A stretch of 64,000 nt of DNA from Euglena gracilis. Its lineage: Eukaryota. This document shows positions 10,191-37,929 of this stretch, one piece after another. A model generated the notes under the pieces. It ran no database searches. It saw only the letters and a list, made by a program, of their open reading frames with translations, and was not told the DNA's origin. A program made the translations under genes and the position numbers. The DNA lies in NCBI GenBank assembly GCA_039621445.1, contig CP154954.1:48401847-48465846 (forward strand), written 5' to 3'. The first letter of the stretch is position 1, and each line of letters starts with the position of its first letter.

Positions 10191-13100
10191 TTCATAGCCT
10201 TAGATCAAGATTTCCAAATTAACATATGAGAGGAGGAGAAATTGATATCAGAGGCGAGCGGAAAAATACAGATAATTGCAGGTGAAATTCTGAAAGCTGC
10301 AGCAAAATTACGGGATAGTTGCAGATATTCATTTCTATCCTGCCAAAACAGAAGCAGCAGGTGACCAGAGGTGGAATATCGAGGTAAATCTACACTTGGT
10401 ATGCAAAGAGCAGGAAAAAGAACTCGAACAAAAAAAAATTGGACGGGTGACGGAAAAACCCTTTCGGGTTAGACCAGCAGGTGGTCAACTTTCGCTCCTT
10501 CCATCGCCTCGCACAAGCGACGCTGCTCCTCCGCCGCCTGCCCCTCCACCGCCGCAAGCGTCTGCCGAGCTGCTTCCGCCGCAGCGGCCATCTGCTCCTC
10601 CAGACCCGCCAGCTTGTCGCTCAGCAGTGCTGGCAGCCGGCCCCTTCACCCTTTGCACGTCCCCCCTGCGAGGTGCTGGAACCCACCGAGGGGCCACGTG
10701 AGGGCCTGCCCACTGCCCTGAGCCTGCTTTGAGCCCCACCCTCGCTGTGACCGCCGGGGGACCCTGGGTCGCTTTTCGTTCAGGGGAAGCACCCCCACCG
10801 GCCCGCCCACACCCGTGCTTTGGTGCTTGCAGCAGGCCAGCCCAAAAACGTCGGCAAATAATTCAAGGGGGGGGCAGTGCAGGACGGGGGGCGGGGGTTG
10901 TTCGAAAGAACCAGGGGAGGGAGGGATCGCCCCACCCAGCCCACCCCAACCCGCACTGGCAGCCCGCCCTCACCAGTATTGCCAGCGGCGAAGGGGCTCG
11001 GCTGGCCGTCGCCTCCTCCTCCAGGCGTCCCTTCTCCGCCTCCATCTCGTGCAGCTGCTCCCGCAGCGCCACCATCTCCCGCGCCACGTCCGCCCCCTGC
11101 GAGTGCGACGCTGCCAGCAGCCCCTTCAGCTCCGCCACCTGCGCCTCCACCGCCGACTGTCCCGCCGTGGCCTCCGCCAGCGCCGCGGTCAGCCGTGCAC
11201 ACTCCTCCCCCTGGGCCGCGAGCTGCCGCGCCATGTCCTGTGTCTGCTCCTCCGCTGCGCCGGCACCTGCCGGTCCAGCCAACCCCCCCTCCCCAACCAT
11301 CCTCCAAAACCCTCAACTCCCACGCGGGCACGTTGTGGTCCTCAAACTCTATAGAAGCCCGTCTCCCCACCCCCGCCGAGCACCAGCAAACAACCTCCCA
11401 ACGACCCCGGCACTCCCACCTGTCCCACAACGCGCGAGGGCACTCCGACCCCCACCCCAACTTCCTCCCGTGGCAGCTCTGGCCGTCCCATGCCCCCGCC
11501 CCCCCCCTCCCCAAGCAGAAAATGTTGGGCCCTCGGCAGTGGATCACCACTCACGCATTGCGGCTAGCTGGACGGTGGGGAGTGGGTTTTGGGACGGGCG
11601 TGGCAAGGCACCCCATCCCTGGACCAGCAGGTGGTCAACTTTCGCTCCTTCCATCGCCTCGCACAAGCGACGCTGCTCCTCCGCCGCCTGCCCCTCCACC
11701 GCCGCAAGCGTCTGCCGAGCTGCTTCCGCCGCAGCGGCCATCTGCTCCTCCAGACCCGCCAGCTTGTCGCTCAGCAGTGCTGGCAGCCGGCCCCTTCACC
11801 CTTTGCATGTCCCCCCTGCGAGGTGCTGGAACCCACCGAGGGGCCACGTGAGGGCCTGCCCACTGCCCTGAGCCTGCTTTGAGCCCCACCCTCGCTGTGA
11901 CCGCCGGGGGACCCTGGGTCGCTTTTCGTTCAGGGGAAGCACCTCCCCCCCCACCAGCCCGCCCACACCCGTGCTTTGGTGCTTGCAGCAGGCCAGCCCC
12001 AAAACGTCGGCAAATTATTCAAGGGGGGGCAGTGCAGGACGGGGGGCGGGGGTTGTTCGAAAGAACCAGGGGAGGGAGGGATCGCCCCACCCAGCCCACC
12101 CCAACCCGCACCGGCAGCCCGCCCTCGCCAGTTTTGCCAGCGGCGAAGGGGCTCGGCTGGCCGTCGCCTCCTCCTCCAGGCGCCCCTTCTCCGCCTCCAT
12201 CTCGTGCAGCTGCTCCCGCAGCGCCACCATCTCCCGCGCCACGTCCGCCCCCTGCGAGTGCGACGCTGCCAGCAGCCCCTTCAGCTCCGCCACCTGCGCC
12301 TCCACCGCCGACTGTCCCGCCGTGGCCTCCGCCAGCGCCGTGGTCAGCCGTGCACACTCCTCCCCCTGGGCCGCGAGCTGCCGCGCCATGTCCTGTGTCT
12401 GCTCCTCCGCTGCGCCTGCACCTGCCGGTCCAGCCAACCCCACCTCCCCAACCATCCTCCAAAACCCTCAACTCCCACGCGGGCACGTTGTGGTCCTCAA
12501 TCTCTATAGAAGCCCGTCTCCCCACCCCCGCCGAGCCCCAGCAAACAACCTCCCAAAGACCCTGGCACTCCCACCTGTCCCACAACGCGCGAGGGCACTC
12601 CGCCCCCAACTTCCTCCCGTGGCAGCTCTGGCCGTCCCATGCCCCGCCCCCCCCCCCCTCCCCAAGCAGAAAATGTTGGGCCCTCGGCAGTGGATCACCA
12701 CTCACGCATTGCGGCTAGCTGGACGGTGGGGAGTGGGTTTTGGGACGGGCGTGGCAAGGCACCCCATCCCTGGACCAGCAGGTGGTCAACTTTCGCTCCT
12801 TCCATCGCCTCGCACAAGCGACGCTGCTCCTCCGCCGCCTGCCCCTCCACGGCCGCAAGCGTCTGCCGAGCTGCTTCCGCCGCAGCGGCCATCTGCTCCT
12901 CCAGACCTGCCAGCTTGTCGCTCAGCAGTGCTGGCAGCCGGCCCCTTCACCCTCTGCACGTCCCCCCTGCGAGGTGCTGGAACCCACTGAGGGGCCACGT
13001 GAGGGCCTGCCCACTGCCCTGAGCCTGCTTTGAGCCCCACCCTCGCTGTGACCGCCGGGGGACCCTGGGTCGCTTTTCGTTCAGGGGAAGCACCTCCCCC

Positions 13101-16100
13101 CCCACCAGCCCGCCCACACCCGTGCTTTGGTGCTTGCAGCAGGCCAGCCCCAAAACGTCGGCAAATTATTCAAGAGGGGGCAGTGCAGGACGGGGGGTGG
13201 GGGTTGCTCGAAAGAACCAGGGGAGGGAGGGATCGCCCCACCCAGCCCACCCCAACCCGCACCGGCAGCCCGCCCTCGCCAGTTTTGCCAGCGGCGAAGG
13301 GGCTCGGCTGGCCGTCGCCTCCTCCTCCAGGCGCCCCTTCTCCGCCTCCATCTCGTGCAGCTGCTCCCGCAGCGCCACCATCTCCCGCGCCACGTCCGCC
13401 CCCTGCGAGTGCGACGCTGCCAGCAGCCCCTTCAGCTCCGCCACCTGCACCTCCACCGCCGACTGTCCCGCCGTGGCCTCCGCCAGCGCCGTGGTCAGCC
13501 GTGCACACTCCTCCCCCTGGGCCGCGAGCTGCCGCGCCATGTCCTGTGTCTGCTCCTCCGCTGCGCCGGCACCTGCCGGTCCAGCCAACCCCCCTCCCCA
13601 ACCATCCTCCAAAACCCTCAACTCCCACGCGGGCACGTTGTGGCCCTCAATCTCTATAGAAGCCCGTCTCCCCCCCCCCGCCGAGCCCCAGCAAACAACC
13701 TCCCAACGACCCCGGCACTCCCACCTGTCCCACAACGCGCGAGGGCACTCCGACCCCAACTTCCTCCCGTGGCAGCTCTGGCCGTCCCATGCCCCGCCCC
13801 CCCCCCTCCCCAAGCAGAAAATGTTGGGCCTTCGGCAGTGGATCACCACTCACGCATTGCGGCTAGCTGGACGGTGGGGAGTGGGTTTTGGGACGGGCGT
13901 GGCAAGGCACCCCATCCCTGGACCAGCAGGTGGTCAACTTTCGCTCCTTCCATCGCCTCGCACAAGCGACGCTGCTCCTCCGCCGCCTGCCCCTCCACCG
14001 CCGCAAGCGTCTGCCGAGCTGCTTCCGCCGCAGCGGCCATCTGCTCCTCCAGACCCGCCAGCTTGTCGCTCAGCAGTGCTGGCAGCCGGCCCCTTCACCC
14101 TTTGCACGTCCCCCCTGCGAGGTGCTGGAACCCACCGAGGGGCCACGTGAGGGCCTGCCCACTGCCCTGAGCCTGCTTTGAGCCCCACCCTCGCTGTGAC
14201 CGCCGGGGGACCCTGGGTCGCTTTTCGTTCAGGGGAAGCACCTCCCCCCCCCCACCAGCCCGCCCACACCCGTGCTTTGGTGCTTGCAGCAGGCCAGCCC
14301 CAAAACGTCGGCAAATTATTCAAGGGGGGGGCAGTGCAGGACGGGGGGCGGGGGTTGTTCGAAAGAACCAGGGGAGGGAGGGATCGCCCCCCCCCCCCCC
14401 ACCCAAACCCGCACCGGCAGCCCGCCCTCGCCAGTTTTGCCAGCGGCGAAGGGGCTCGGCTGGCCGTCGCCTCCTCCTCCAGGCGCCCCTTCTCCGCCTC
14501 CATCTCGTGCAGCTGCTCCCGCAGCGCCACCATCTCCCGCGCCACGTCCGCCCCCTGCGAGTGCGACGCTGCCAGCAGCCCCTTCAGCTCCGCCACCTGC
14601 GCCTCCACCGCCGACTGTCCCGCCGTGGCCTCCGCCAGCGCCGTGGTCAGCCGTGCACACTCCTCCCCCTGGGCCGCGAGCTGCCGTGCCATGTCCTGTG
14701 TCTGCTCCTCCGCTGCGCCGGCACCTGCCGGCCCAGCCAAACCCCCTCCCCAACCATCCGAGAGATGGCGTAAGTGGAGCCCCACAGTACCCCCACGGTA
14801 ACTGTGGGGTAAACCCACAACTCCACCCACACGTCACCCCACACTTCCTCCGGCCCCCACACTCCCCCCCCCCCCCCCACTGGCACCCCCACCACTTACC
14901 CCACACTCCACCACTGTCACGCCCACACTCCCCCCCACACGCCACCCCACTGTCACCCCCACACTTAACACCCCACGACTCCCACCCAATGTCAAACCCA
15001 CACCCCCCAACACTCCACCCCACTGTCCCCCCACTACCAACCACCACACTCACCCCCCTGGCCACCGCCCACAATTAACAACCCCACAAGCCCCCCATGT
15101 CACCCCACAGCCCCCCCCAACTCCCCCCCACTGTCACCCCCACACAGAACCCCCCCCGCTTTCCGTTGTTGTGTGAATGGAAATTGCCGAAGATCCCTTT
15201 GTATGGTTACGTACCAAGCCCAATTGATGTGCGCACTGTTCGGAGGGTTTGTCCAATTTTTTTGACTTTACTCGGCCGTCGGCCTCGTCGCGCCGCTGCC
15301 GTCGCCGCGTCCCGGGGGGTGGTAGCGGCCCCCGCCTCCCGCCCCCCTCCCCCAAGAACCAAAATAGCATCATCCCCTTGTGTGTGCAAGGCAAGGGGAA
15401 CAAATTCCATTTCATCGGATTTGGCACACTCCCCCCCACTGTCACCCCACACGTACCCCCCACACTCCCCCTCACTGTCACCCCACACTTACCCCCCACA
15501 CTCCCCCCCACTGTCACCCCCACACTCCCCCCCACACGCCCCCCCACTGTCCCCCCACACTTACCCCCCACACTCCCCCCCACTGTCACCCCACTCACTC
15601 CCCCCCCCACACTCCCCCCCACTGTCACCCCACACATACTCCCCACACTCCCCCCCCCACACTTACCCCCCACAGTACCCCACACTCGACTGTGGGGGCT
15701 CCACTTTATGCCATATGTGAACCATCCTCCAAAACCCTCAACTCCCACGCGGGCACGTTGTGGTCCTCAATCTCTATAGAAGCCCGTCTCCCCACCCCCG
15801 CCGAGCCCCAGCAAACAACCTCCCAACGACCCTGGCACTCCCACCTGTCCCACAACGCGCGAGGGCACTCCGACCCCCACCCCAACTTCCTCCCGTGGCA
15901 GCTCTGGCCGTCCCGTGCCCCCGCCCCTCCCCCCTCCCCAAGCAGAAAATGTTGGGCCCTCGGCAGTGGATCACCACTCACGCATTGCGGCTAGCTGGAC
16001 GGTGGGGAGTGGGTTTTGGGACGGGCGTGGCAAGGCACCCCATCCCTGGACCAGCAGGTGGTCAACTTTCGCTCCTTCCATCGCCTCGCACAAGCGACGC

Positions 16101-19100
16101 TGCTCCTCCGCCGCCTGCCCCTCCACCGCCGCAAGCGTCTGCCGAGCTGCTTCCGCCGCAGCGGCCATCTGCTCCTCCAGACCCGCCAGCTTGTCGCTCA
16201 GCAGTGCTGGCAGCCGGCCCCTTCACCCTTTGCACGTCCCCCCTGCGAGGTGCTGGAACCCACCGAGGGGCCACGTGAGGGCCTGCCCACTGCCCTGAGC
16301 CTGCTTTGAGCCCCACCCTCGCTGTGACCGCCGGGGGACCCTGGGTCGCTTTTCGTTCAGGGGAAGCACCCCCCCCCCCACCAGCCCGCCCACACCCGTG
16401 CTTTGGTGCTTGCAGCAGGCCAGCCCCAAAACGTCGGCAAATTATTCAAGGGGGGGCAGTGCAGGACGGGGGGCGGGGGTTGTTCGAAAGAACCAGGGGA
16501 GGGAGGGATCGCCCCACCCAGCCCACCCCAACCCGCACCGGCAGCCCGCCCTCGCCAGTTTTGCCAGCGGCGAAGGGGCTCGGCTGGCCGTCGCCTCCTC
16601 CTCCAGGCGTCCCTTCTCCGCCTCCATCTCGTGCAGCTGCTCCCGCAGCGCCACCACCATCTCCCGCGCCACGTCCGCCCCCTGCGAGGGCGAGGCGGCC
16701 AGCAGCGGCTTCAGCTGCGCCACCTGCGCCTCCACCGCAGACTGTCCCCGTGGCCTCCGCCAGCGCCGTGGTCAGCCGTGCACACTCCTCCCCCTGGGCC
16801 GCGAGCTGCCGCGCCATGTCCTGTGTCTGCTCCTCCGCTGCGCCGGCACCTGCCGGTCCAGCCAACCCCACCTCCCCAACCATTCTCCAAAACCCTCAAC
16901 TCCCACGCGGGCACGTTGTGGTCCTCAATCTCTATACAAGCCCGTCTCCCCACCCCCGCCGAGCCCCAGCAAACAACCTCCCAACGACCCCGGCACTCCC
17001 ACCTGTCCCACAACGCGCGAGGGCACTCCGACCCCCACCCCAACTTCCCCCCGTGGCAGCTCTGGCCGTCCCATGCCCCCGCCCCTCCCCCCTCCCCAAG
17101 CAGAAAATGTTGGGCCCTCGGCAGTGGATCACCACTCACGCATTGCGGCTAGCTGGACGGTGGGGAGCGGGTTTTGGGACGGGCGTGGCAAGGCACCCCA
17201 TCCCTGGACCAGCAGGTGGTCAACTTTCGCTCCTTCCATCGCCTCGCACAACCGACGCTGCTCCTCCGCCGCTTGCCCCTCCACCGCCGCAAGCGTCTGC
17301 CGAGCTGCTTCCGCCGCAGCGGCCATCTGCTCCTCCAGACCCGCCAGCTTGTCGCTCAGCAGTGCTGGCAGCCGGCCCCTTCACCCTTTGCACGTCCCCC
17401 CTGCGAGGTGCTGGAACCCACCGAGGGGCCACGTGAGGGCCTGCCCACTGCCCTGAGCCTGCTTTGAGCCCCACCCTCGCTGTGACCGCCGGGGGACCCT
17501 GGGTCGCTTTTCGTTCAGGGGAAGCACCCCACCAGCCCGCCCACACCCGTGCTTTGGTGCTTGCAGCAGGCCAGCCCCAAAACGTCGGCAAATTATTCAA
17601 GGGGGGGCAGTGCAGGACGGGGGGTGGGGGTTGCTCGAAAGAACCAGGGGAGGGAGGGATCGCCCCACCCAGCCCACCCCAACCCGCACCGGCAGCCCGC
17701 CCTCGCCAGTTTTGCCAGCGGCGAAGGGGCTCGGCTGGCCGTCGCCTCCTCCTCCAGGCGCCCCTTCTCCGCCTCCATCTCGTGCAGCTGCTCCCGCAGC
17801 GCCACCATCTCCCGCGCCACGTCCGCCCCCTGCGAGTGCGACGCTGCCAGCAGCCCCTTCAGCTCCGCCACCTGCGCCTCCACCGCCGACTGTCCCGCCG
17901 TGGCCTCCGCCAGCGACGTGGTCAGCCGTGCACACTCCTCCCCCTGGGCCGCGAGCTGCCGTGCTATGTCCTGTGTCTGCTCCTCCGCTGCGCCGGCACC
18001 TGCCGGTCCAGCCAACCCCCCTCCCCAACCATCCGAGAGATGGCGTAAAGTGGAGCCCCCACAGTACCCCACAGTACTGTGGGGTACCCCACACCCCCCC
18101 CCACTGTCAGCCCACACTTACCCCCCACACTCCCCCTCACTGTCACCCCACCCTTATCCCCCACCCTCCCCCCCACTGTCACCCCACCCTTACTTCCCAC
18201 ACTCCCCCCCACTGTCACCCCACCCTCCCCCCCACACTCCCCCCCACTGTCACCCCACACTTCCCCCCCACACTCCCCGCCACTGTCACCCCACCCTCCC
18301 CCCCACACTCCCCCCCACTGTCACCCCACACATACTCCCCACACTCCCCCCCACACTTACCCCCCACAGTACCCCACACTCGACTGTGGGGGCTCCACTT
18401 TATGCCATATGTGAACCATCCTCCAAAACCCTCAACTCCCACGCGGGCACGTTGTGGTCCTCAATCTCTATAGAAGCCCGTCTCCCCTCCCACCCCCGCC
18501 GAGCCCCAGCAAACAACCTCCCAAAGACCCTGGCACTCCCACCTGTCCCACAACGCGCGAGGGCACTCCGACCCCCACCCCAACTTCCTCCCGTGGCAGC
18601 TCTGGCCGTCCCATGCCCCCGCCCCTCCCCCCTCCCCAAGCAGAAAATGTTGGGCCCTCGGCAGTGGATCACCACTCACGCATTGCGGCTAGCTGGACGG
18701 TGGGGAGTGGGTTTTGGGACGGGCGTGGCAAGGCACCCCATCCCTGGACCAGCAGGTGGTCAACTTTCGCTCCTTCCATCACCTCGCACAACCGACGCTG
18801 CTCCTCCGCCGCCTGCCCCTCCACCGCCGCAAGCGTCTGCCGAGCTGCTTCCGCCGCAGCGGCCATCTGCTCCTCCAGACCCGCCAGCTTGTCGCTCAGC
18901 AGTGCTGGCAGCCGGCCCCTTCACCCTCTGCACGTCCCCCCTGCGAGGTGCTGGAACCCACCGAGGGGCCACGTGAGGGCCTGCCCACTGCCCTGAGCCT
19001 GCTTTGAGCCCCACCCTCGCTGTGACCGCCGGGGGACCCTGGGTCGCTTTTCGTTCAGGGGAAGCACCTCCCCCCCCCACCAGCCCGCCCACACCCGTGC

Positions 19101-22100
19101 TTTGGTGCTTGCAGCAGGCCAGCCCCAAAACGTCGGCAAATTATTCAAGGGGGGGCAGTGCAGGACGGGGGGGGGGGGGGTTGCTCGAAAGAACCAGGGG
19201 AGGGAGGGATCGCCCCACCCAGCCCACCTCAACATGCACCGGCAGCCCGCCCTCGCCAGTTTTGCCAGCGGCGAAGGGGCTCGGCTGGCCGTCGCCTCCT
19301 CCTCCAGGCGCCCCTTCTCCGCCTCCATCTCGTGCAGCTGCTCCCGCAGCGCCACCATCTCCCGCGCCACGTCCGCCCCCTGCGAGTGCGACGCTGCCAG
19401 CAGCCCCTTCAGCTCCGCCACCTGCGCCTCCACCGCCGACTGTCCCGCCGTGGCCTCCGCCAGCGCCGTGGTCAGCCGTGCACACTCCTCCCCCTGGGCC
19501 GCGAGCTGCCGCGCCATGTCCTGTGTCTGCTCCTCCGCTGCGCCGGCACCTGCCGGTCCAGCCAACCCCCCCTCCCCAACCATCCTCCAAAACCCTCAAC
19601 TCCCACGCGGGCACGTTGTGGTCCTCAATCTCTATACAAGCCCGTCTCCCCACCCCCACCGAGCCCCGGCAAACAACCTCCCAACGACCCCGGCACTCCC
19701 ACCTGTCCCACAACGCGCGAGGGCACTCCGACCCCCACCCCAACTTCCTCCTGTGGCAGCTCTGGCCGTCCCATGCCCCCGCCCCTGCCCCCTCCCCAAG
19801 CAGAAAATGTTGGGCCCTCGGCAGTGGATCACCGCTCACGCATTGCGGCTAGCTGGACGGTGGGGAGCGGGTTTTGGGACGGGCGTGGCAAGGCACCCCA
19901 TCCCTGGACCAGCAGGTGGTCAACTTTCGCTCCTTCCATCGCCTCGCACAACCGACGCTGCTCCTCCGCCGCTTGCCCCTCCACCGCCGCAAGCGTCTGC
20001 CGAGCTGCTTCCGCCGCAGCGGCCATCTGCTCCTCCAGACCCGCCAGCTTGTCGCTCAGCAGTGCTGGCAGCCGGCCCCTTCACCCTTTGCACGTCCCCC
20101 CTGCGAGGTGCTGGAACCCACCGAGGGGCCACGTGAGGGCCTGCCCACTGCCCTGAGCCTGCTTTGAGCCCCACCCTCGCTGTGACCGCCGGGGGACCCT
20201 GGGTCGCTTTTCGTTCAGGGGAAGCACCCCCAACAGCCCGCCCACACCCGTGCTTTGGTGCTTGCAGCAGGCCAGCCCCAAAACGTCGGCAAATTATTCA
20301 AGGGGGGGCAGTGCAGGACGGGGGGCGGGGGTTGTTCGAAAGAACCAGGGGAGGGAGGGATTGCCCCACCCAGCCCACCCCAACATGCACCGGCAGCCCG
20401 CCCTCGCCAGTTTTGCCAGCGGCGAAGGGGCTCGGCTGGCCGTCGCCTCCTCCTCCAGGCGTCCCTTCTCCGCCTCCATCTCGTGCAGCTGCTCCCGCAG
20501 CGCCACCATCTCCCGCGCCACGTCCGCCCCCTGCGAGTGCGACGCTGCCAGCAGCCCCTTCAGCTCCGCCACCTGCGCCTCCACCGCCGACTGTCCCGCC
20601 GTGGCCTCCGCCAGCGCCGTGGTCAGCCGTGCACACTCCTCCCCCTGGCCCGCGAGCTGCCGCGCCATGTCCTGTGTCTGCTCCTCCGCTGCGCCGGCAC
20701 CTGCCGGTCCAGCCAACCCCCCCTCCCCAACCATCCTCCAAAACCCTCAACTCCCACGCGGGCACGTTGTGGTCCTCAATCTCTATACAAGCCCGTCTCC
20801 CCACCCCCGCCGAGCCCCAGCAAACAACCTCCCAACGACCCCGGCACTCCCACCTGTCCCACAACGCGCGAGGGCACTCCGACCCCCACCCCAACTTCCT
20901 CCTGTGGCAGCTCTGGCCGTCCCATGCCCCCGCCCCTGCCCCCTCCCCAAGCAGAAAATGTTGGGCCCTCGGCAGTGGATCACCACTCACGCATTGCGGC
21001 TAGCTGGACGGTGGGGAGCGGGTTTTGGGACGGGCGTGGCAAGGCACCCCATCTCTGGCCCAGCAGGTGGTCAACTTTCGCTCCTTCCATCGCCTCGCAC
21101 AACCGACGCTGCTCCTCCGCCGCTGTCCCCTCCACCGCCGCAAGCGTCTGCCGAGCTGCTTCCGCCGCAGCGGCCATCTGCTCCTCCAGACCCGCCAGCT
21201 TGTCGCTCAGCAGTGCTGGCAGCCGGCCCCTTCACCCTTTGCACGTCCCCCCTGCGAGGTGCTGGAACCCACCGAGGGGCCACGTGAGGGCCTGCCCACT
21301 GCCCTGAGCCTGCTTTGAGCCCCACCCTCGCTGTGACCGCCGGGGGACCCTGGGTCGCTTTTCGTTCAGGGGAAGCACCCCCAACAGCCCGCCCACACCC
21401 GTGCTTTGGTGCTTGCAGCAGGCCAGCCCCAAAACGTCGGCAAATTATTCAAGGGGGGGCAGTGCAGGACGGGGGGCGGGGGTTGTTCGAAAGAACCAGG
21501 GGAGGGAGGGATTGCCCCACCCAGCCCACCCCAACATGCACCGGCAGCCCGCCCTCGCCAGTTTTGCCAGCGGCGAAGGGGCTCGGCTGGCCGTCGCCTC
21601 CTCCTCCAGGCGTCCCTTCTCCGCCTCCATCTCGTGCAGCTGCTCCCGCAGCGCCACCATCTCCCGCGCCACGTCCGCCCCCTGCGAGTGCGACGCTGCC
21701 AGCAGCCCCTTCAGCTCCGCCACCTGCGCCTCCACCGCCGACTGTCCCGCCGTGGCCTCCGCCAGCGCCGTGGTCAGCCGTGCACACTCCTCCCCCTGGG
21801 CCGCGAGCTGCCGCGCCATGTCCTGTGTCTGCTCCTCCGCTGCGCCGGCACCTGCCGGTCCAGCCAACCCCCCCTCCCCAACCATCCTCCAAAACCCTCA
21901 ACTCCCACGCGGGCACGTTGTGGTCCTCAATCTCTATACAAGCCCGTCTCCCCACCCCCGCCGAGCCCCAGCAAACAACCTCCCAACGACCCCGGCACTC
22001 CCACCTGTCCCACAACGCGCGAGGGCACTCCGACCCCCACCCCAACTTCCTCCCGTGGCAGCTCTGGCCGTCCCATGCCCCCGCCCCTGCCCCCTCCCCG

Positions 22101-25100
22101 AGCAAAGAAAATGTTGGGCCCTCGGCAGTGGATCACCACTCACGCATTGCGGCTAGCTGGACGGTGGGGAGCGGGTTTTGGGACGGGCGTGGCAAGGCAC
22201 CCCATCCCTGGACCAGCAGGTGGTCAACTTTCGCTCCTTCCATCGCCTCGCACAACCGACGCTGCTCCTCCGCCGCCTGCCCCTCCACCGCCGCAAGCGT
22301 CTGCCGAGCTGCTTCCGCCGCAGCGGCCATCTGCTCCTCCAGACCCGCCAGCTTGTCGCTCAGCAGTGCTGGCAGCCGGCCCCTTCACCCTTTGCACGTC
22401 CCCCCTGCGAGGTGCTGGAACCCACCGAGGGGCCACGTGAGGGCCTGCCCACTGCCCTGAGCCTGCTTTGAGCCCCACCCTCGCCGGGGGACCCTGGGTC
22501 GCTTTTCGTTCAGGGGAAGCACCCCCACCAGCCCGCCCACACCCGTGCTTTGGTGCTTGCAGCAGGCCAGCCCCAAAACGTCGGCAAATTATTCAAGGGG
22601 GGGGCAGTGCAGGACGGGGGGCGGGGGTTGTTCGAAAGAACCAGGGGAGGGAGGGATCGCCCCACCCAGCCCACCCCAACATGCACCGGCAGCCCGCCCT
22701 CGCCAGTTTTGCCAGCGGCGAAGGGGCTCGGCTGGCCGTCGCCTCCTCCTCCAGGCGTCCCTTCTCCGCCTCCATCTCGTGCAGCTGCTCCCGCAGCGCC
22801 ACCATCTCCCGCGCCATGTCCGCCCCCTGCGAGTGCGACGCTGCCAGCAGCCCCTTCAGCTCCGCCACCTGCGCCTCCACCGCCGACTGTCCCGCCGTGG
22901 CCTCCGCCAGCGCCGTGGTCAGCCGTGCACACTCCTCCCCCTGGGCCGCGAGCTGCCGCGCCATGTCCTGTGTCTGCTCCTCCGCTGCGCCGGCACCTGC
23001 CGGTCCAGCCAACCCCCCCTCCCCAACCATCCTCCAAAACCCTCAACTCCCACGCGGGCACGTTGTGGTCCTCAATCTCTATACAAGCCCGTCTCCCCAC
23101 CCCCGCCGAGCCCCAGCAAACAACCTCCCAACGACCCCAGCACTCCCACCTGTCCCACAACGCGCGAGGGCACTCCGACCCCCACCCCAACTTCCTCCTG
23201 TGGCAGCTCTGGCCGTCCCATGCCCCCGCCCCTGCCCCCTCCCCAAGCAGAAAATGTTGGGCCCTCGGCAGTGGATCACCACTCACGCATTGCGGCTAGC
23301 TGGACGGTGGGGAGCGGGTTTTGGGACGGGCGTGGCAAGGCACCCCATCTCTGGCCCAGCAGGTGGTCAACTTTCGCTCCTTCCATCGCCTCGCACAACC
23401 GACGCTGCTCCTCCGCCGCTTGCCCCTCCACCGCCGCAAGCGTCTGCCGAGCTGCTTCCGCCGCAGCGGCCATCTGCTCCTCCAGACCCGCCAGCTTGTC
23501 GCTCAGCAGTGCTGGCAGCCGGCCCCTTCACCCTTTGCACGTCCCCCCTGCGAGGTGCTGGAACCCACCGAGGGGCCACGTGAGGGCCTGCCCACTGCCC
23601 TGAGCCTGCTTTGAGCCCCACCCTCGCTGTGACCGCCGGGGGACCCTGGGTCGCTTTTCGTTCAGGGGAAGCACCCCCAACAGCCCGCCCACACCCGTGC
23701 TTTGGTGCTTGCAGCAGGCCAGCCCCAAAACGTCGGCAAATTATTCAAGGGGGGGCAGTGCAGGACGGGGGGCGGGGGTTGTTCGAAAGAACCAGGGGAG
23801 GGAGGGATTGCCCCACCCAGCCCACCCCAACATGCACCGGCAGCCCGCCCTCGCCAGTTTTGCCAGCGGCGAAGGGGCTCGGCTGGCCGTCGCCTCCTCC
23901 TCCAGGCGTCCCTTCTCCGCCTCCATCTCGTGCAGCTGCTCCCGCAGCGCCACCATCTCCCGCGCCACGTCCGCCCCCTGCGAGTGCGACGCTGCCAGCA
24001 GCCCCTTCAGCTCCGCCACCTGCGCCTCCACCGCCGACTGTCCCGCCGTGGCCTCCGCCAGCGCCGTGGTCAGCCGTGCACACTCCTCCCCCTGGGCCGC
24101 GAGCTGCCGCGCCATGTCCTGTGTCTGCTCCTCCGCTGCGCCGGCACCTGCCGGTCCAGCCAACCCCCCTCCCCAACCATCCTCCAAAACCCTCAACTCC
24201 CACGCGGGCACGTTGTGGTCCTCAATCTCTATACAAGCCCGTCTCCCCACCCCCGCCGAGCCCCAGCAAACAACCTCCCAACGACCCCGGCACTCCCACC
24301 TGTCCCACAACGCGCGAGGGCACTCCGACCCCCACCCCAACTTCCTCCCGTGGCAGCTCTGGCCGTCCCATGCCCCCGCCCCTCCCCCCTCCCCAAGCAG
24401 AAAATGTTGGGCCCTCGGCAGTGGATCACCACTCACGCATTGCGGCTAGCTGGACGGTGGGGAGCGGGTTTTGGGACGGGCGTGGCAAGGCACCCCATCC
24501 CTGGACCAGCAGGTGGTCAACTTTCGCTCCTTCCATCGCCTCGCACAACCGACGCTGCTCCTCCGCCGCCTGCCCCTCCACCGCCGCAAGCGTCTGCCGA
24601 GCTGCTTCCGCCGCAGCGGCCATCTGCTCCTCCAGACCCGCCAGCTTGTCGCTCAGCAGTGCTGGCAGCCGGCCCCTTCACCCTTTGCACGTCCCCCCTG
24701 CGAGGTGCTGGAAACCCACCGAGGGGCCACGTGAGGGCCTGCCCACTGCCCTGAGCCTGCTTTGAGCCCCACCCTCGCCGGGGGACCCTGGGTCGCTTTT
24801 CGTTCAGGGGAAGCACCCCCACCAGCCCGCCCACACCCGTGCTTTGGTGCTTGCAGCAGGCCAGCCCCAAAACGTCGGCAAATTATTCAAGGGGGGGGCA
24901 GTGCAGGACGGGGGGCGGGGGTTGTTCGAAAGAACCAGGGGAGGGAGGGATCGCCCCACCCAGCCCACCCCAACATGCACCGGCAGCCCTCGCCAGTTTT
25001 GCCAGCGGCGAAGGGGCTCGGCTGGCCGTCGCCTCCTCCTCCAGGCGTCCCTTCTCCGCCTCCATCTCGTGCAGCTGCTCCCGCAGCGCCACCATCTCCC

Positions 25101-28100
25101 GCGCCATGTCCGCCCCCTGCGAGTGCGACGCTGCCAGCAGCCCCTTCAGCTCCGCCACCTGCGCCTCCACCGCCGACTGTCCCGCCGTGGCCTCCGCCAG
25201 CGCCGTGGTCAGCCGTGCACACTCCTCCCCCTGGGCCGCGAGCTGCCGCGCCATGTCCTGTGTCTGCTCCTCCGCTGCGCCGGCACCTGCCGGTCCAGCC
25301 AACCCCCCCTCCCCAACCATCCTCCAAAACCCTCAACTCCCACGCGGGCACGTTGTGGTCCTCAATCTCTATACAAGCCCGTCTCCCCACCCCCGCCGAG
25401 CCCCAGCAAACAACCTCCCAACGACCCCGGCACTCCCACCTGTCCCACAACGCGCGAGGGCACTCCGACCCCCACCCCAACTTCCTCCCGTGGCAGCTCT
25501 GGCCGTCCCATGCCCCGCCCCCCCCCCTCCCCAAGCAGAAAATGTTGGGCCTTCGGCAGTGGATCACCACTCACGCATTGCGGCTAGCTGGACAGTGGGG
25601 AGCGGGTTTTGGGACGGACGTGGCAAGGCACCCCATCTCTGGACCAGCAGGTGGTCAACTTTCGCTCCTTCCATCGCCTCGCACAAGCGACGCTGCTCCT
25701 CCGCCGCCTGCCCCTCCACCGCCGCAAGCGTCTGCCGAGCTGCTTCCGCCGCAGCGGCCATCTGCTCCTCCAGACCCGCCAGCTTGTCGCTCAGCAGTGC
25801 TGGCAGCCGGCCCCTTCACCCTTTGCACGTCCCCCCTGCGAGGTGCTGGAACCCACCGAGGGGCCACGTGAGGGCCTGCCCACTGCCCTGAGCCTGCTTT
25901 GAGCCCCACCCTCGCTGTGACCGCCGGGGGACCCTGGGTCGCTTTTCGTTCAGGGGAAGCACCCCCACCAGCCCGCCCACACCCGTGCTTTGGTGCTTGC
26001 AGCAGGCCAGCCCCAAAACGTCGGCAAATTATTCAAGGGGGGGGCAGTGCAGGACGGGGGGCGGGGGTTGTTCGAAAGAACCAGGGGAGGGAGGGATCGC
26101 CCCACCCAGCCCACCCCAACCCGCACCGGCAGCCCGCCCTCGCCAGTTTTGCCAGCGGCGAAGGGGCTCGGCTGGCCGTCGCCTCCTCCTCCTCCAGGCG
26201 TCCCTTCTCCGCCTCCATCTCGTGCAGCTGCTCCCGCAGCGCCACCATCTCCCGCGCCACGTCCGCCCCCTGCGAGTGCGACGCTGCCAGCAGCCCCTTC
26301 AGCTCCGCCACCTGCGCCTCCACCGCCGACTGTCCCGCCGTGGCCTCCGCCAGCGCCGTGGTCAGCCGTGCACACTCCTCCCCCTGGGCCGCGAGCTGCC
26401 GCGCCATGTCCTGTGTCTGCTCCTCCGCTGCGCCGGCACCTGCCGGTCCCGCCAAACCCCCCTCCCCAACCATCCTCCAAAACCCTCAACTCCCACGCGG
26501 GCACGTTGTGGCCCTCAATCTCTATAGAAGCCCGTCTCCCCACCCCCGCCGAGCCCCAGCAAACAACCTCCCAACGACCCCGGCACTCCCACCTGTCCCA
26601 CAACGCGCGAGGGCACTCCGAACCACCCCAACTTCCTCCCGTGGCAGCTCTGGCCGTCCCATGCCCCCGCCCCTGCCCCCTCCCCGAGCAAAGAAAAAAT
26701 GTTGGGCCCTCGGCAGTGGATCACCACTCACGCATTGCGGCTAGCTGGACAGTGGGGAGCGGGTTTTGGGACGGACGTGGCAAGGCACCCCATCCCTGGA
26801 CCATCAGGTGGTCAACTTTCGCTCCTTCCATCGCCTCGCACAAGCGACGCTGCTCCTCCGCCGCCTGCCCCTCCACCGCCGCAAGCGTCTGCCGAGCTGC
26901 TTCCGCCGCAGCGGCCATCTGCTCCTCCAGACCCGCCAGCTTGTCGCTCAGCAGTGCTGGCAGCCGGCCCCTTCACCCTTTGCACGTCCCCCCTGCGAGG
27001 TGCTGGAACCCACCGAGGGGCCACGTGAGGGCCTGCCCACTGCCCTGAGCCTGCTTTGAGCCCCACCCTCGCCGGGGGACCCTGGGTCGCTTTTCGTTCA
27101 GGGGAAGCACCCCCACCAGCCCGCCCACACCCGTGCTTTGGTGCTTGCAGCAGGCCAGCCCCAAAACGTCGGCAAATTATTCAAGGGGGGGGCAGTGCAG
27201 GACGGGGGGCGGGGGTTGTTCGAAAGAACCAGGGGAGGGAGGGATCGCCCCACCCAGCCCACCCCAACATGCACCGGCAGCCCTCGCCAGTTTTGCCAGC
27301 GGCGAAGGGGCTCGGCTGGCCGTCGCCTCCTCCTCCAGGCGTCCCTTCTCCGCCTCCATCTCGTGCAGCTGCTCCCGCAGCGCCACCATCTCCCGCGCCA
27401 TGTCCGCCCCCTGCGAGTGCGACGCTGCCAGCAGCCCCTTCAGCTCCGCCACCTGCGCCTCCACCGCCGACTGTCCCGCCGTGGCCTCCGCCAGCGCCGT
27501 GGTCAGCCGTGCACACTCCTCCCCTTGGGCCGCGAGCTGCCGCGCCATGTCCTGTGTCTGCTCCTCCGCTGCGCCGGCACCTGCCGGTCCAGCCAACCCC
27601 CCCCCCCAACAACCATCCTCCAAAACCCTCAACTCCCACGCGGGCACGTTGTGGTCCTCAATCTCTATACAAGCCCGTCTCCCCACCCCCGCCGAGCCCC
27701 AGCAAACAACCTCCCAACGACCCCGGCACTCCCACCTGTCCCACAACGCGCGAGGGCACTCCGACCCCCACCCCAACTTCCTCCTGTGGCAGCTCTGGCC
27801 GTCCCATGCCCCCGCCCCTCCCCCCTCCCCGAGCAAAGAAAATGTTGGGCCCTCGGCAGTGGATCACCACTCACGCATTGCGGCTAGCTGGACGGTGGGG
27901 AGCGGGTTTTGGGACGGGCGTGGCAAGGCACCCCATCCCTGGACCAGCAGGTGGTCAACTTTCGCTCCTTCCATCGCCTCGCACAAGCGACGCTGCTCCT
28001 CCGCCGCCTGCCCCTCCACCGCCGCAAGCGTCTGTCGAGCTGCTTCCGCCGCAGCGGCCATCTGCTCCTCCAGACCCGCCAGCTTGTCGCTCAGCAGTGC

Positions 28101-31100
28101 TGGCAGCCGGCCCCTTCACCCTTTGCACGTCCCCCCTGCGAGGTGCTGGAACCCACCGAGGGGCCACGTGAGGGCCTGCCCACTGCCCTGAGCCTGCTTT
28201 GAGCCCCACCCTCGCTGTGACCGCCGGGGGACCCTGGGTCGCTTTTCGTTCAGGGGAAGCACCCCCACCAGCCCGCCCACACCCGTGCTTTGGTGCTTGC
28301 AACAGGCCAGCCCCAAAACGTCGGCAAATTATTCAAGGGGGGGCAGTGCAGGACGGGGGGCGGGGGTTGTTCGAAAGAACCAGGGGAGGGAGGGATCGCC
28401 CCACCCAGCCCACCCCAACATGCACCGGCAGCCCTCGCCAGTTTTGCCAGCGGCGAAGGGGCTCGGCTGGCCGTCGCCTCCTCCTCCAGGCGTCCCTTCT
28501 CCGCCTCCATCTCGTGCAGCTGCTCCCGCAGCGCCACCATCTCCCGCGCCACGTCCAGGCACCTATGGTCACTTCCCATTTTGGTGCTCTGGTCGGCCCT
28601 GGTCGGCCCTGGTCGGCCCTGGTCGGCCCTGGTCGGCCCTGGTCGGCCCTGGTGTGCAAATAGTCGGCCATAGGTGGGGGTATCCGTCACAGAAAAAAAA
28701 GATTGTGAAAAATAACCCAAAATTACCAAAAGAGCACAAAATGGCCAAAATGCCATAAAATATGCTCATATTGACCCAAATTAGCCCAATATTTGCCAAA
28801 TCAGTGACTGCGGTCAGCTGAAAATGGTTAAAAATGGCCAAAAGTGGGCAAAGGCCAAAGAAAAGCTGTTTTGGCCACTGTTTTTGCAAATCCAGAAGCT
28901 GCACCTGGGGCAAAATGCTCAAAAATGGTCAAATTGGACCAAAAAGAGACCAAAAAAAATGGGCAAAATAAAAAAAAAGGCCGAAAATGGCTTTAAATGG
29001 TCAAAAATGGCCCAAGAGCAGGACAAAATGGCCCAAAATTACAAGAAGTGCGCAAAAAATGGCCAAAAATGGTCAAAATAGGTCAAAATTGGTGAATTAT
29101 GGTGACAAATGGGCCAATAGGGGACAAAAGCGACCTAAAATGGCCAAAAGCGACCAAAAGCAGCCAAAAGTGACAGCATGAGCCAGATGAGCCAGAAAAA
29201 TCTCAAAATCTGGGATAAAAATGAGCCTAATTCCTCACTCTCACTGAAAAATTGACATCAATTAGGAAAAAGTTGCGCGGTCGGGTGCGTTCGGGTGCGT
29301 TCGGCTGCGGTCGGCTGCGGTAACCCGCGGTCGATGCTGCCGGGCCAGCATCGCCCTGCATCGCCCAGCATCGCCCAGCATCATCAGAGGTGCTTGGTCC
29401 AGAGGGAAAGCTGCTGAATTCCTTCATCCATTCCCCTTCCGTCGCCAACCACATGCAAGTCGGCCCTGGTCGGCCCTGGTCGGCCCTGGTCGGCCCTGGT
29501 CGGAACCCCCACCTACGGGGGTCCTGAAACTCATAGTCGGCCCTGGTCGGCCCTGGTCGGCCCTGGTCGGCCCTGGTCGGCCATAGGTGCCTGGCCACGT
29601 CCGCCCCCTGCGAGTGCGACGCTGCCAGCAGCCCCTTCAGCTCCGCCAGCTGCTCTTCTGCCATTGTTCTTTCGTTCTTTCCTCTTTCCAGATCAGCGGC
29701 GTGCACCTGCCTTCCTTGGCGTGCGGATTTTCATCAGACCTTTCATATATGTATTTCTCTGAATTTTATTTTGGTTCATTTCCTCGGTACTGGTTAACTT
29801 ATTGGTACTGTGAAGGATCTAGAGTATTGAGACCAACTTCCTTACTTCCTGACTGTCAGGTCTATTTTGAAATATATTTTTGCTCAAATTAATCGACCTT
29901 AATCTTAAACCACTTGAAACATTGCGTATATTTAAAAAAAATGATAACGGTTATTGCTAATATCCGATCTTGCCTTTTGCAAAAATGGTAAGCCATTGAC
30001 ATATTATAAGCTCCGATGGTTTATTTGGCACAATCAGCCATTTTCGGACAATTTCGACCATTTTTGAGCCATTTTGGACCCTTTTTTTTTTACCACTTTC
30101 TGGTTACTTCGTCCATTTTCAACAAATCGGTTTGATTTTATGATGAAAAATGGCCCCAAATGACAAAAAAAATATGCCAAAAATGCCAAAAAAAAATAAC
30201 CAATGGTCGTCCAAACAGGGCCAAAATTGGCCCATAGTGTCTGAGAGTGGCATGAAAATGGTTGGAGAAAGCCAAAAATGGCCCCCAAAAAATAAATGGT
30301 CAAAACATACGGGAATGGAAGAGGCAGCGGGAAAATCCTGAAAAGACGTTCAAATGTGAGCTAAATATGCGTAAAATATGCGAAATGTGCACATGGCAAA
30401 ACCTTCAGAAATACTACATGAAACCTCACACACTTGACTTGAAAAAGATGGGTATCGGCCGTAAGGGTTTGAGCAAGCGTAGCAAACTGCAGTCATACGG
30501 CAGCCGCCTGGTCAGCCAGCAGCCGGCACCTTTCCTTTGCTGCCTCACGGATCTCCCCCTGCACCCCTTCCTGGCGCCGCTGCAGGCCCTCCACCGTGGC
30601 GGAGAGCCCGTCGACGGTGCGCCGCAGCTCCTGTGCCTCCCGCTGGGCGTGGCTTGCCGGCAGGGGTCGCCGCGGCAGGCGACCCCCACTCCGACAAATA
30701 CGTGGCGGCACACTTCCAGAAACGGTCACGTGTTAGGACGGGAACAAAAATCACCCCCCCAAAAAATGGGACAAAACTGTACAAAAAAAAATGGTGAAAG
30801 TGGCCCAGTCTGGTCAAAAACTGGGTCGAATTGCCCAAGGTTGGCCAAACTCTGTATAGGCGGCCCAAAATTCCCCAAAATGGTCAAAAAAACGGAAGCA
30901 GGCGTAATCCCAGTTGGGCGGTGCGGTGCGCACTTTTCAGGGAGGAAGCTTCGGACCCCCGCAGTGCACACTCATCGGGGGGGGGGGGGGGGGTACAATT
31001 GCGACGGTGCGCATTCATTTCGGGGGGTCCATCAGGGCGGGGCCCGCTCTCCACCCCCCCCCTGAACAGTTGCCCCCATCGGGGCGCCCCCTGCGCAGCC

Positions 31101-34100: not shown

Positions 34101-37100
34101 ACTGCTGCACTTGGATGCAAAAATCAACCATGTCCCACCAAATCAGGCTTCAAAAGCTTCTAAATTTTCAAATATTTCGAGAAACTTTCCCTAAAGCGCG
34201 CACAAAATAAGTCTCCCCGAGAAGATGACCTTTGAGAAGATGGGTAAGAACCAGGGGGTGGTGCTTAGACAAGGGTGGTGGTTAAACAAGGGGGGGGGAG
34301 GTAAATTGGTCCTCCGCCATGCCCCGTGCCCCCCCCCAACAGCAAACCAACCAGGGGTCCATACCCGCAGGAGGCCAGGGGCCTGGCGGTCTGCATGCGC
34401 CCGCTCCCTGGCTTGCGTGGCGCCGGCCGCCTCCGCTGCCGCGAGGGCCCGCAGGCGCTCCCGCAGGGCGGCCGCCTCGCGCTGTGCCTCCGCGAGCTGT
34501 CCCCGCAGTCCGCCCGCCTGCCGCTCCGCCTCCCGTTGGCCCCACTCCGCCTCGTCCCGCTGCTGCTCTGCCCGGCGGAGGGCGGCGGTGCGGGCACCCG
34601 GGCTGGCGGAAGGGCAGGGGGGGGGGGTCTCTGGTGCCTAACGGCACATCCGAAACTGGCAAAAAAAGATGGGACAAAAAAGTGGGCTGCCAAAGCTGTT
34701 CTTCGACAAAAAAAAAAAAAAGGAAAAATGCCACCCAGCAGCATGGAAGAGGAAAAGGGAGGGGGTACGTTGTCTGGCCGGTACCCCTTCGCAGGTTCAC
34801 CCCCCATCCACGGTCAATAAAGGGGGGGTATCCTGGCTGGGGACTGGCGCTGCAGAGCGTGGCCAGCCCGGCCTTCAACGCCTCCAAGCCCCTCCCCAAC
34901 GGCCCCCCTCCCCGGTGGGGGGTCCACCGCCAGCCGGGTGGGCGGTCGCGCCGTGCGCCTCTGCCTGGGCCAGCAGCTCCACCGCCTGCCGCTGGGCGGC
35001 CGCCAGCTCCTCGCGCAGGATTGCTGTGCAGGGCGGAATGGGGAGGGGGGAGGGCGGGCCGGCGCCCCCCGCAAGGCGATCCGGGGGTGACCGAAGCAAG
35101 CAAGCCTTGCCATCCCCGGATCTTCGTTGGTGTTGGGGGGGGGGGGAAATATTTTTGACAACGGCAGATCAGCACCGGGGACAAAAGTGGTTTCTGGTGC
35201 CCTTCGAACACTTCTCATCCAATGAAAAAAGGGGGGGGACTGGTTTGCGTTTCCTGTTTGGGATTTTGACCCAGCCTCGGGTCGCCCGTTTTTCTTTGCT
35301 TCTTTTGGTTTATGGAGAACATTAAGGAATACCTTTGAGAAGATAAAAAACCTCATTCCCTTAACTGCATGCCAAACGGGGATCCCATGCCGGTCCCATT
35401 GGGCCCTGGCGTTGCCGCCTGCTCCGCAGCTGCACGCCGGGTCTCAGCTGATTGCAGGCAACTGCAGCCACCCTGGGCAGCAGATGGGCGTCCCCATGCC
35501 ATTGGGTGCAAGCCCACCCCCTGTGTGCACTGTGGCGGTTTGTGTGGTGCCTTTCGTAGCCCTCTTTGGCCTGGCTGGATTCCGCCTCTGTCTGTGGACT
35601 CCGTCTTGTTGGCTGTGTGCGTGGAGGGGGCCGGGGCAGGGCAAGACCTCTTTTTTCCTGCACCAGCCACCAAGCGGCTACCAGACACATTCCCCACTGT
35701 GTGCATGCCCTTCCCCCCCCCCAAGACAAGCAAACCCTCGCTGGAAGACAAAAACTGACCCCTCAAGGCAGGGCTGCACGGGAGGGCTGGCGGGGGGGGG
35801 GGGGCAGACTCCCCATCCAGGCGGAGGGTGGAGGTGGAGGCGGGAGGGGGTCGCACTTCACAAAAAAATTGATTGGTGAGGAAGGTGCCAAGGAGATTCT
35901 GGACACAAAAATAGGGCCCTTGAAAATAGGAAGGGTGGGGGGTCGACCCCACCCACACCCAAAGGGTTTCCGGCTTTCACCCTAGTCAGCCCTAGTCAGC
36001 GAGTTCTCAGTCATCCTCCCACACACATGCCATTCAGAATGTTTGGCTGATCTTTTGTGTCAAATTTCAAAATGCACAGTGCCAACAGTTGCGTCGGATC
36101 GCCCTGCAAGACAACGCAAACCATAGCAACCCTTGCCACCCGTTGCCGCGATCCAAAACTAAACCATTGTGGGCGAAGGGCTGGCTGGCCGACCCGTACA
36201 GGCCGCCAGCTCCCGGGCGTGCGCCGCCACCTCCGCCTCACCATCGCGGACCTTCGCCTCCAGGGCCCCGATTTCCTTCGCCAACGTTCTCTCCTTCACC
36301 ACCGTCAGCTCCTTCAACTGGAAGCCAGTGCTCTCCCAGAGTCCACGTCACGTGACAAACGGCACACGGCGCGCGTGGAATTCACCGTCTGTTGCTCATC
36401 ATTCCACGGACGACGTTTGTCCGTTGAAAGAAAAAGGGAACCGGCGTTTCAACACAAATCAGCCTGCCGCGTGGGCACACAGCTTCCACTTCACACTCGC
36501 AACGCAGGCAGACAACCTATACCACCAATGCAATATACAATTGTATACACAATTGTATATTGTATATACAGTTGTATTTCCAATATGTGTGTTTATATTA
36601 TAATACAATACATGCATATATAATTGTAATATGTACGGCAGCGAGATTCCACTGGGCCACCCTGGAGGAGCCAAATAGAATCTCCAGGGGGGTTTCGCGA
36701 AAAGTTTTGCGTTATGAATGGAATGGGGTTAGGGTTTGGAGTTCGGCCTAACTTTAGGCCTAACTTATGGACGGGTGTTAGGTGTACAAGTCAGGCCTAA
36801 AGTTAGGCCGAACTCCTAACCATACATCTCTTTAAGGACCCGGGGGGGGGGGGTTGCTGGGCTAGGGCTAGAAATTTGGGCCGGCGAGCCCCCCCCCGGG
36901 GGGGGGGGGGGGGCTGGACCCCGGCTGGACCCGAACCGGGGCGAGCTGGACTGAAATCGGAAAAATGCCCAAAAATGACCTGCAGAACACAGTTTTGAAA
37001 AAAATGATGCATCTGAAACCCCGCAAAAATGCCCCAAACGCCCCCCAAACCCCATTTTTGGCCACTTTTGAACACAGTTTTTCAAAAAAATTTCGGCGCT

Positions 37101-37424
37101 TTGCGCCGAAAACTTTTGGGCTGGACCCCCAAAAAGGGCTGGCTAGCTAGGGCTAGCAGCACCCCCCCCCCCCGGGGGGAGGGGGCTGCTGCGGCTGGGC
37201 TGGGCCCAAATCGGGGCTGGCTGCAGCCGCCCCCCCAGGGGGGGGGTCGCAAAACCTCAGAGAGATGTATGCTCCTAACCCTAACCCTGCTCCATCGTTA
37301 ACGTAAAAAGAAATTTGGACCCCCTGGAGATTCTACTTGGCCCCCCGGGGGGGGGGGGTCAAGTAGAATCTCGCTGCCAATCTCGCTGCTGTGTGTGTGT
37401 GTGTGTGTGTACACACACACACAC

Positions 37425-37489
<65 letters not shown>

Positions 37490-37854: not shown

Positions 37855-37929
<75 letters not shown>

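Follow-up and report, generated by a model that had tools for sequence, protein, structure and literature searches.

Where the nonconventional introns of euglenids come from, and why they are cut at positions set apart from a CAG and a CTG by the offsets +4 and -8, have been questions since the 1990s. One locus of Euglena gracilis raises both. It lies in a 64,000-nt stretch of forward-strand DNA (assembly GCA_039621445.1, contig CP154954.1, positions 48,401,847 to 48,465,846), which we analysed as a whole and call the window, numbering it from its first letter. Here, the first coding exon of a tandem-repeat gene is interrupted by a 1038-bp element that is bounded by terminal inverted repeats (TIRs) and lies between the two copies of an 8-bp target site duplication (TSD). 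Is this insertion a disruption, or an intron? We present evidence that a CAG-ended, 8-bp-TSD (hAT-like) transposon probably forms at this site a ready-made nonconventional intron, predicted from its fit to the published splicing code.

The element, its perfect TIR and the TSD splitting the exon had been reported in a preliminary description of this DNA made from the letters alone, and are borne out by the sequence and by a repeat search. Its parts are the following:

28548..28555, no strand: left TSD copy GCCACGTC, present as a single copy at the empty site of 14 sister units
28556..29593, no strand: non-coding TIR element, 1038 bp, GC 0.51 (sequence, repeats and scan of open reading frames, ORFs)
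28556..28568, plus strand: left TIR CAGGCACCTATGG (repeat search)
28592..28653, plus strand: subterminal array of the 10-bp unit GTCGGCCCTG (repeat search)
28663..28676, plus strand: internal duplicate of the 14 nt adjoining the right tip, GTCGGCCATAGGTG (repeat search)
29459-29503 and 29536-29580, oriented as the array at 28592..28653: further arrays of the GTCGGCCCTG unit (repeat search)
29581..29593, minus strand: right TIR, exact reverse complement of the left TIR (repeat search)
29594..29601, no strand: right TSD copy GCCACGTC (read from the sequence)

The repeat search of the window returned the inverted pair as 14-nt arms, 100% complementary and 1012 nt apart. The TIR itself is perfect over 13/13 positions, or over 14 bp when one flanking pair is counted; because the base that closes the TSD is complementary to the one that opens it, the empty site is equally compatible with a TIR of 14 bp and a duplication of 6 bp, and the direct repeat of 8 bp becomes 9 when the first C of the TIR is included. 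The core of the element is A-rich with a periodicity of ~10 nt. Its read-through ORF (P0001) matches no Pfam family, the 40-aa read-through N-terminus compared with a protein database (longer proteins only) gave 123 candidates of which 0 scored, and Rfam gave no match anywhere in the window.

The host gene offers its own control, in the form of sister units carrying the uninterrupted site. The 15-mer spanning this empty site, GCGGACGTGGCGCGG, has 16 matches in the window at no more than two mismatches: 11 are exact, 3 have one mismatch (GACATG) and the remaining 2 are the split halves flanking the element. GTG thus stands in 11/14 sister-unit empty sites and ATG in 3/14, exactly as the preliminary description had counted. 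In shuffles, the same 15-mer has a mean of 0.17 matches, and 0/100 shuffles reached 16. Note that each 13-mer end alone is unremarkable, with 2.16 chance matches expected at up to two mismatches; what exceeds chance is an exact inverted pair with an adjoining 8-bp direct repeat, at a site intact in 14 paralogous units. Comparison of the filled site with the 14 paralogous empty sites confirmed a real TIR/TSD insertion.

Two other origins of the insert can be weighed on these data. In a tandem array adjoining repeats, it is conceivable that the assembly wrongly put a repeat into the terminal unit, but this is extremely improbable here: a chimeric join would not yield an exact 8-bp duplication of the empty site beside perfect TIRs, and fourteen DNA runs contain 56-62% of the sampled words of 28300-29900. 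Filler DNA from double-strand-break repair has been proposed to account for the 8-nt repeats of a Euglena agilis gapC intron (PMC4770533). For the present insert we regard it as very improbable, given the perfect 13-14-bp TIR, an apparently multi-copy family of which another copy ends at the same tip, and three other TIR elements in the window with exactly 8-bp duplications, no other length above 6 bp being represented.

The host gene and the parts of it that surround the insertion, all on the minus strand, are the following:

10629..29664, minus strand: host gene, 15 tandem units of ~1150 bp encoding a generic coiled coil (empty-site search, intron and frame analysis)
29597..29664, minus strand: first coding exon, part 1, 68 nt, with a candidate ATG at 29662-29664 (ORF and unit comparison)
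28551..29596, minus strand: predicted nonconventional intron, 1046 nt, GGC-CAGG...CCTG-GACGT followed by exon G (code match, ORF test)
28473..28550, minus strand: first coding exon, part 2, 78 nt (translation and frame analysis)
28099..28472, minus strand: nonconventional intron I1 of unit 1, GGC-CAG...CTG-CCAGC followed by A (removed in RNA)
27585..27944, minus strand: predicted nonconventional intron I2, GTC-CAG...CTG-GACCG followed by G (sequence and frame)

Against Pfam, the gene gives sub-threshold coiled-coil families only. Its 15 I1 and 14 I2 introns share a common end geometry, and the reading frame is kept over 21 consecutive exons when the introns are excised by the CAG/CTG rule; a GT-AG reading of I2 was rejected, as it breaks the frame. 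On the acceptor side, two I2 copies have deviating ends (26444-26453 and 14729-14738, minus strand): one has CGG for CTG, outside the published CH'G rule, and the other has GGCCG for the GACCG spacer. Two I2-type introns contain 36-bp C-rich tandem repeats (6.4 copies at 15425-15656 and 7.5 copies at 18087-18354) and are enlarged to 1323 and 746 nt versus ~356 nt elsewhere.

RNA evidence was drawn from ~5-6% of each of three runs (X21, X22, X24) and from X15 contigs, aligned to 27900-36700. The joint 28098->28473 of I1, slidable by 1, is found in 11 reads of X21, 2 of X22, 1 of X24 and one X15 contig. I1 is thus spliced out of the RNA at a joint that puts CAG at +4..+6 and CTG at -8..-6, the euglenid offsets, which supports a genome of the euglenid kind. 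The geometry expected in the preliminary description is therefore present, RNA-verified for I1 and alike in the 29 introns of the host gene, and corresponds to that described for euglenids (PMC11282704, PMC12501133).

The rules of nonconventional splicing have been derived from E. gracilis knock-ins, as N3-CDG...CH'G-N5-6 followed by a purine (R), plus pairing of the ends (PMC12501133). In that work the donor spacer is strictly 3 nt and the acceptor spacer 5 nt, with 6 tolerated at lower efficiency; five fully synthetic 50-bp introns obeying the code were spliced, and without pairing the function was lost. The preliminary description had placed an intron at 28551-29596, made of 3 nt of one TSD copy, the element and 5 nt of the other, and this arithmetic holds. 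On the transcribed strand, where the TSD reads GACGTGGC, the predicted intron has CAG at +4..+6, CTG at -8..-6 and spacers of 3 nt and 5 nt, the downstream exon starts with a purine (G at 28550, minus strand), and excision would restore GCGGACGT joined to GGCGCGG. The predicted intron also agrees with the consensus published for E. gracilis, in which CCAGG stands at +3..+7 and CCTG at -9..-6 (PMC11170887). Its ends would pair over 14 contiguous positions; a duplex between its terminal 25-mers is computed at -30.1 kcal/mol (-41.4 kcal/mol for the RNA-verified I1), the 5' end being the best partner of the 3' end within the intron, and the terminal 10+U7+10 fold at -11.8 kcal/mol versus -13.7 for I1, where the published majority range of end-fold energies is -10 to -2 (PMC11170887). 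As judged from its letters, the insertion agrees with the published code in every item.

The reading frame distinguishes between the possible excisions. With 1046 nt removed, 1487 codons are open from the ATG at 29664; with the element retained a stop is reached at codon 145, and with the element alone removed at codon 53. The predicted spliced product of unit 1 reads ATGGCAGAAGAGCAGC...GCGGACGT joined to GGCGCGGGAG, and retention would continue into CAGGCACC.

In the reading that we favour, a non-autonomous CAG-ended DNA transposon inserted in the first coding exon of a euglenid-type tandem-repeat coiled-coil gene. Its ends, CAGG...CCTG, would pair over 13-14 bp, and the 8-bp duplication gives 3 nt upstream and 5 nt downstream, which are the distances that the splicing activity measures before CAG and after CTG. 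The element and exactly one TSD copy would then be removed from the RNA, and the reading frame is predicted to be restored. We infer both the splicing of this copy and its hAT membership, and speak of an element becoming an intron because the code fits, not because of transcripts. The preliminary description had added that such an insertion would be scarless in either orientation and in any codon phase. This stands as arithmetic, because cut offsets summing to 8 restore the target of any 8-bp-TSD element, but it needs in addition a purine at TSD position 6 of the transcribed strand; at this insertion, position 6 is G on both strands.

What do the transcripts say of the insertion itself? A joint 28547->29594, skipping 1046 nt and slidable by 9, is present in 12 reads of X21, 2 of X22, 0 of X24 and in one X15 contig. 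These reads are uninformative on unit 1, because the 14 sister units yield the same sequence unspliced. As to excision in the form of a full-length circle, none of the joints listed runs back over ~1046 nt, in libraries not designed for circles. Several observations weigh against splicing of this copy. The longest shorter side of the joints is 60 letters and ends at 29653, the exact point where unit 1 ceases to resemble its sister units (the unit-1-specific letters of exon part 1 begin only at 29649, going upward), and the joint-spanning X15 contig continues for 145 unaligned letters. In the RNA sampled, no read or contig ties unit-1-specific sequence across the joint, and the depth is 0 at 29664-29957 in 3/3 raw runs; the latter carries little weight, because ~1 unit-1 joint read is expected, the X21 exon depth of ~8 being the sum over 15 units. 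The unit-1 letter at 28035, in exon A, is the only unit-1-specific letter in any covered exon and occurs in 1/24 reads, a count compatible with equal representation of the units (1 in 15) and too thin to build on. As for folding, the minimum free energy (MFE) structure of a 1086-nt RNA leaves the termini unpaired, an MFE at the 1-kb scale being deemed uninformative either way, and the internal end-duplicate at 28663-28676 could, by its sequence, act as a rival pairing partner for the 3' end of this RNA. Finally, the exon B copy at 16590-16853 (minus strand) has a +1 frameshift, with 264 nt versus 263 in its sisters, which closes the predicted ORF after the 1487 codons and puts the last four units out of frame; it may be an assembly indel or gene decay.

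The missing unit-1-specific RNA across the site, the zero depth upstream of 29664, the frameshift, the unpaired termini and the internal competitor all speak for a plain, unspliced and disruptive insertion, with unit 1, at the edge of a decaying repeat gene, dead or dispensable, or with the mRNA starting downstream; the agreement with the intron code would then be of no consequence here. An in-frame ATG lies shortly downstream of the insertion (the codon of REMVAL) and could, to judge from the sequence, give an N-terminally shortened product without splicing. We nevertheless consider a plain insertion unlikely: all code requirements tested are present, and synthetic introns having them were spliced (PMC12501133); the other introns of the host gene use the same machinery; the unit-1 letter of exon A does appear in one of the 24 reads; and the RNA sample is without power to show absence.

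RNA also bears on the family to which the element belongs. The element interior is covered by RNA reads on both strands, and these probably come from paralogous copies, because they consistently carry letters differing from this copy. At 28654, another letter is read in 13/13 (X21), 10/11 (X22) and 8/8 (X24) reads, the letters of this copy at 28654/28655 being essentially missing from the covering reads, and at 28981 and 29118 another letter is read in 7/7 and 8/8 reads of X24. One 152-nt X15 contig matches 28556-28617 alone, ending at the TIR tip, and X15 words, summed per bin, reach a depth of 4332-10215 over the element versus 185 in an exon bin. An introner system, as suggested in the preliminary description, would require many similar copies to serve as introns of unrelated genes; RNA of the family is plentiful. 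A search for further copies of the TIR had been proposed in the preliminary description: a second copy of the 1038-bp element is absent from the 64-kb window (BLAST), and exact-pattern scans of metagenome contigs with both element ends gave nothing, but the RNA reads and the TIR-tip contig point to other copies of the family. In X24, element-family reads over 28488-29663 favour one direction by ~25 to 1 (plus-strand first mates: 12, 7.97, 6.1 and 4.44; minus-strand first mates: 0.43, 0.29, 0.24 and 0.05), which is also the direction of the host-gene exon reads. RNA of the element family is thus nearly all of the T-rich orientation, a bias in X24 that could stem from how copies are oriented within genes, from a small number of dominant loci or from the library.

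Which superfamily does the element come from? The ends of hAT elements typically begin with CAG. Further hallmarks are short TIRs (5-27 bp) and 8-bp TSDs (PMC4316626), and the element has both. The preliminary description had called it hAT-like on such grounds, and the 8-bp TSD and short TIR uphold this as a structural label, derived from TSD length and termini only because no transposase was found in the ORFs scanned, namely P0001 and, with Pfam, the 10 longest ORFs outside the array (10 of 204 listed). A second point against hAT membership is that the TSD does not follow, on either strand, the target preference of the Ac group, with T in position 2 and A in position 7 (GCCACGTC / GACGTGGC). 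This preference is a trait of a group and not of the superfamily, and yeast hAT families mostly do not have it (PMC4316626).

Is this element the only one of its kind in the region? An unbiased scan, in which 9-mer inverted-repeat seeds were extended outward, gave 2225 candidate pairs in the window. Flanking direct repeats of exactly 8 bp were found for 4 of these, one of them poly-G, against a mean of 0.23 such pairs in 30 dinucleotide shuffles; repeats of 7, 9, 10 or 11 bp flank 0 of the 2225 pairs, and up to 6 bp the counts fall off as expected. A second scan, restricted to CAG...CTG pairs, considered 163,169 pairs, 12,106 of them with five or more terminal bases paired, and contributes the element at 4734-5153 plus a weak low-complexity case at 31399-31636. 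Apart from the insertion in the host gene, the window thus contains the following elements:

4734..5153, no strand: CAGG-ended element, 420 bp, TIR 17/18 starting CAGGG, 8-bp TSD CTTGGGGG (CAG...CTG scan)
36821..37271, no strand: element, 451 bp, TIR 11/11 starting CAT, 8-bp TSD CTCCTAAC (unbiased scan)
51678..52819, no strand: element, 1142 bp, TIR 11/11 starting CAAGG, 8-bp TSD ACCGGAGC (unbiased scan)

Overall, these data indicate that several TIR-element families making 8-bp duplications populate this stretch of the genome. Among the four solid elements, only CTCCTAAC is an Ac-type TSD (T2, A7). BLAST against the window returned no further copies of the other four elements or of introns I1 and I2. 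The element at 4734-5153 adjoins, on the upstream side, a different coding stretch of the minus strand that is also coiled-coil-like and, to go by its termini and flanks, would conform to the nonconventional code in both orientations.

Does the sum 3+5=8 have a meaning beyond this locus? In a broader reading, to which we grant slightly less than even weight, euglenid nonconventional splicing would in effect be a precise RNA-level excision of hAT-like transposons, and the bulk of nonconventional introns would be decayed insertions. If true, the removal of a CAGG-ended element from an exon would be scarless from the first generation, provided that TSD position 6 is a purine; in E. agilis, nonconventional introns make up 71.8% of introns. 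The Y/R consensus common to both junctions (the slash marking the cut) would, likewise, be TSD positions 5/6 seen twice. Both junctions indeed tend to Y/R (PMC6221363), and positions 5/6 of the TSD at this insertion are T/G. In addition, 69.1% of nonconventional introns are slidable through flanking direct repeats (PMC12501133), a young E. agilis gapC intron has 8-nt direct repeats (PMC4770533), and the CAGG and CCTG within the CCAGG/CCTG consensus of the introns are also the terminal letters of those 8-bp-TSD elements in the window that are CAGG-ended.

Against the broader reading, and in favour of a coincidental sum, stand four facts. The two older introns of the host gene keep no trace of a TSD, with 2/8 matching positions for I1 and 3/8 predicted spacer positions for I2; two of the four 8-bp-TSD elements of the window have CAA and CAT at their starts and would violate the code; direct repeats flank conventional introns too, and 6-nt acceptor spacers also work (both PMC12501133). 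The element might accordingly be spliced while 3+5=8 is a coincidence or reverse causality, the enzyme setting the geometry for unrelated reasons, 8-bp-TSD elements being simply those whose exon insertions are tolerated, and most nonconventional introns not being of such descent. We see this as a possible, if somewhat doubtful, account in view of the gapC repeats, the Y/R junctions expected for TSD positions 5/6, the shared termini and the share of slidable introns.

How does the insertion compare with known systems? It resembles euglenid nonconventional introns in its offsets, its 3/5-nt spacers, the purine of the 3' exon, the paired ends and CCAGG/CCTG (PMC12501133, PMC11170887, PMC3935182). 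Those introns are mRNA-defined and mostly old, with degraded repeats, whereas the insertion has an intact TIR, a perfect TSD and paralogous empty sites, and its splicing is predicted. A further case is the strain-specific intron 4 of gapC in E. agilis ACOI 323, likewise a recent nonconventional intron, with a direct repeat of exactly 8 nt that exceeds in length the repeats of the other introns studied; its authors proposed double-strand-break repair and drew no link to a TSD or to 3+5 (PMC4770533, 2016).

Introners of other lineages are comparable in part. Those of Micromonas and Aureococcus are non-autonomous TIR transposons turned intron, with the TSD forming part of the boundary, but they use GT/GC-AG, the spliceosome, 3-bp TSDs and one element-borne splice site (PMC11282704). 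Orientation matters for them because one splice site is carried by the element; the boundaries of the present element, in contrast, are noncanonical and would be measured from a symmetric CAG/CTG stem. The introners of Amoebophrya, with inverted repeats of 8-20 nt and direct repeats of 3-5 nt, are noncanonical, overlap the boundary and are MITE-like, i.e. resemble miniature inverted-repeat transposable elements (PMC7789003); they differ in belonging to another lineage, in their shorter and variable repeats and in having no fixed 3/5 offset. With hAT MITEs the element shares the 8-bp TSD, the short TIR and the non-coding interior (PMC4316626); it differs in that its TSD is not nTnnnnAn, in its length (1038 bp is long for a MITE) and in that no cognate transposase was identified in the ORFs scanned.

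The preliminary description had regarded a transposon origin of these introns as suggested in general terms. The prior art is in fact stronger than this. The proposal that they derive from MITEs dates from 2014 (PMC3935182) and was repeated in 2018 and 2025, the 8-nt repeat of the new gapC intron was reported in 2016 (PMC4770533), and a 2024 review draws the nonconventional intron with TIR and 'TSD' labels (PMC11282704). According to the 2014 paper, euglenid genomes had at that time yielded no transposable elements (PMC3935182); the contribution of TSDs to introner boundaries is established elsewhere (PMC11282704, PMC7789003), and the paper that defined the code in 2025 still describes the origin of nonconventional introns as unclear (PMC12501133). 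In the literature searched, subscription papers and supplements being beyond reach, we found no statement equating the TSD length with the spacers of 3 nt and 5 nt taken together, no link of nonconventional introns to hAT and no intact element with empty-site paralogs. The rationale for the offsets is apparently unpublished.

An intact TIR/TSD element agreeing with the code, with empty sites alongside, is an intermediate of the sort that the MITE hypothesis lacked. The relation 3+5=8 makes this hypothesis sharply testable on existing data, namely annotated introns in the hundreds of thousands. It also predicts how knock-ins should behave when their duplications measure 7, 8 or 9 bp, and names a transposon superfamily in which the mobilising enzyme should be sought.

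The window has several other features. Strong RNA signals at 30840-31721 were rejected as expression, since they are poly-G read tails partly matching G runs; hundreds of reads run on as poly-G at 30976-30994, 31418-31435 and 31558-31588. A palindrome of ~500 bp occupies 37390-37975, with arms 82% identical and shorter inverted repeats nested in it, and a 193-bp direct repeat is found at 46974-47166 and 47312-47498. The sole RNA gene call in the window is an 84-nt tRNA-Arg (CCT) at 43570-43653 on the minus strand (ARAGORN).

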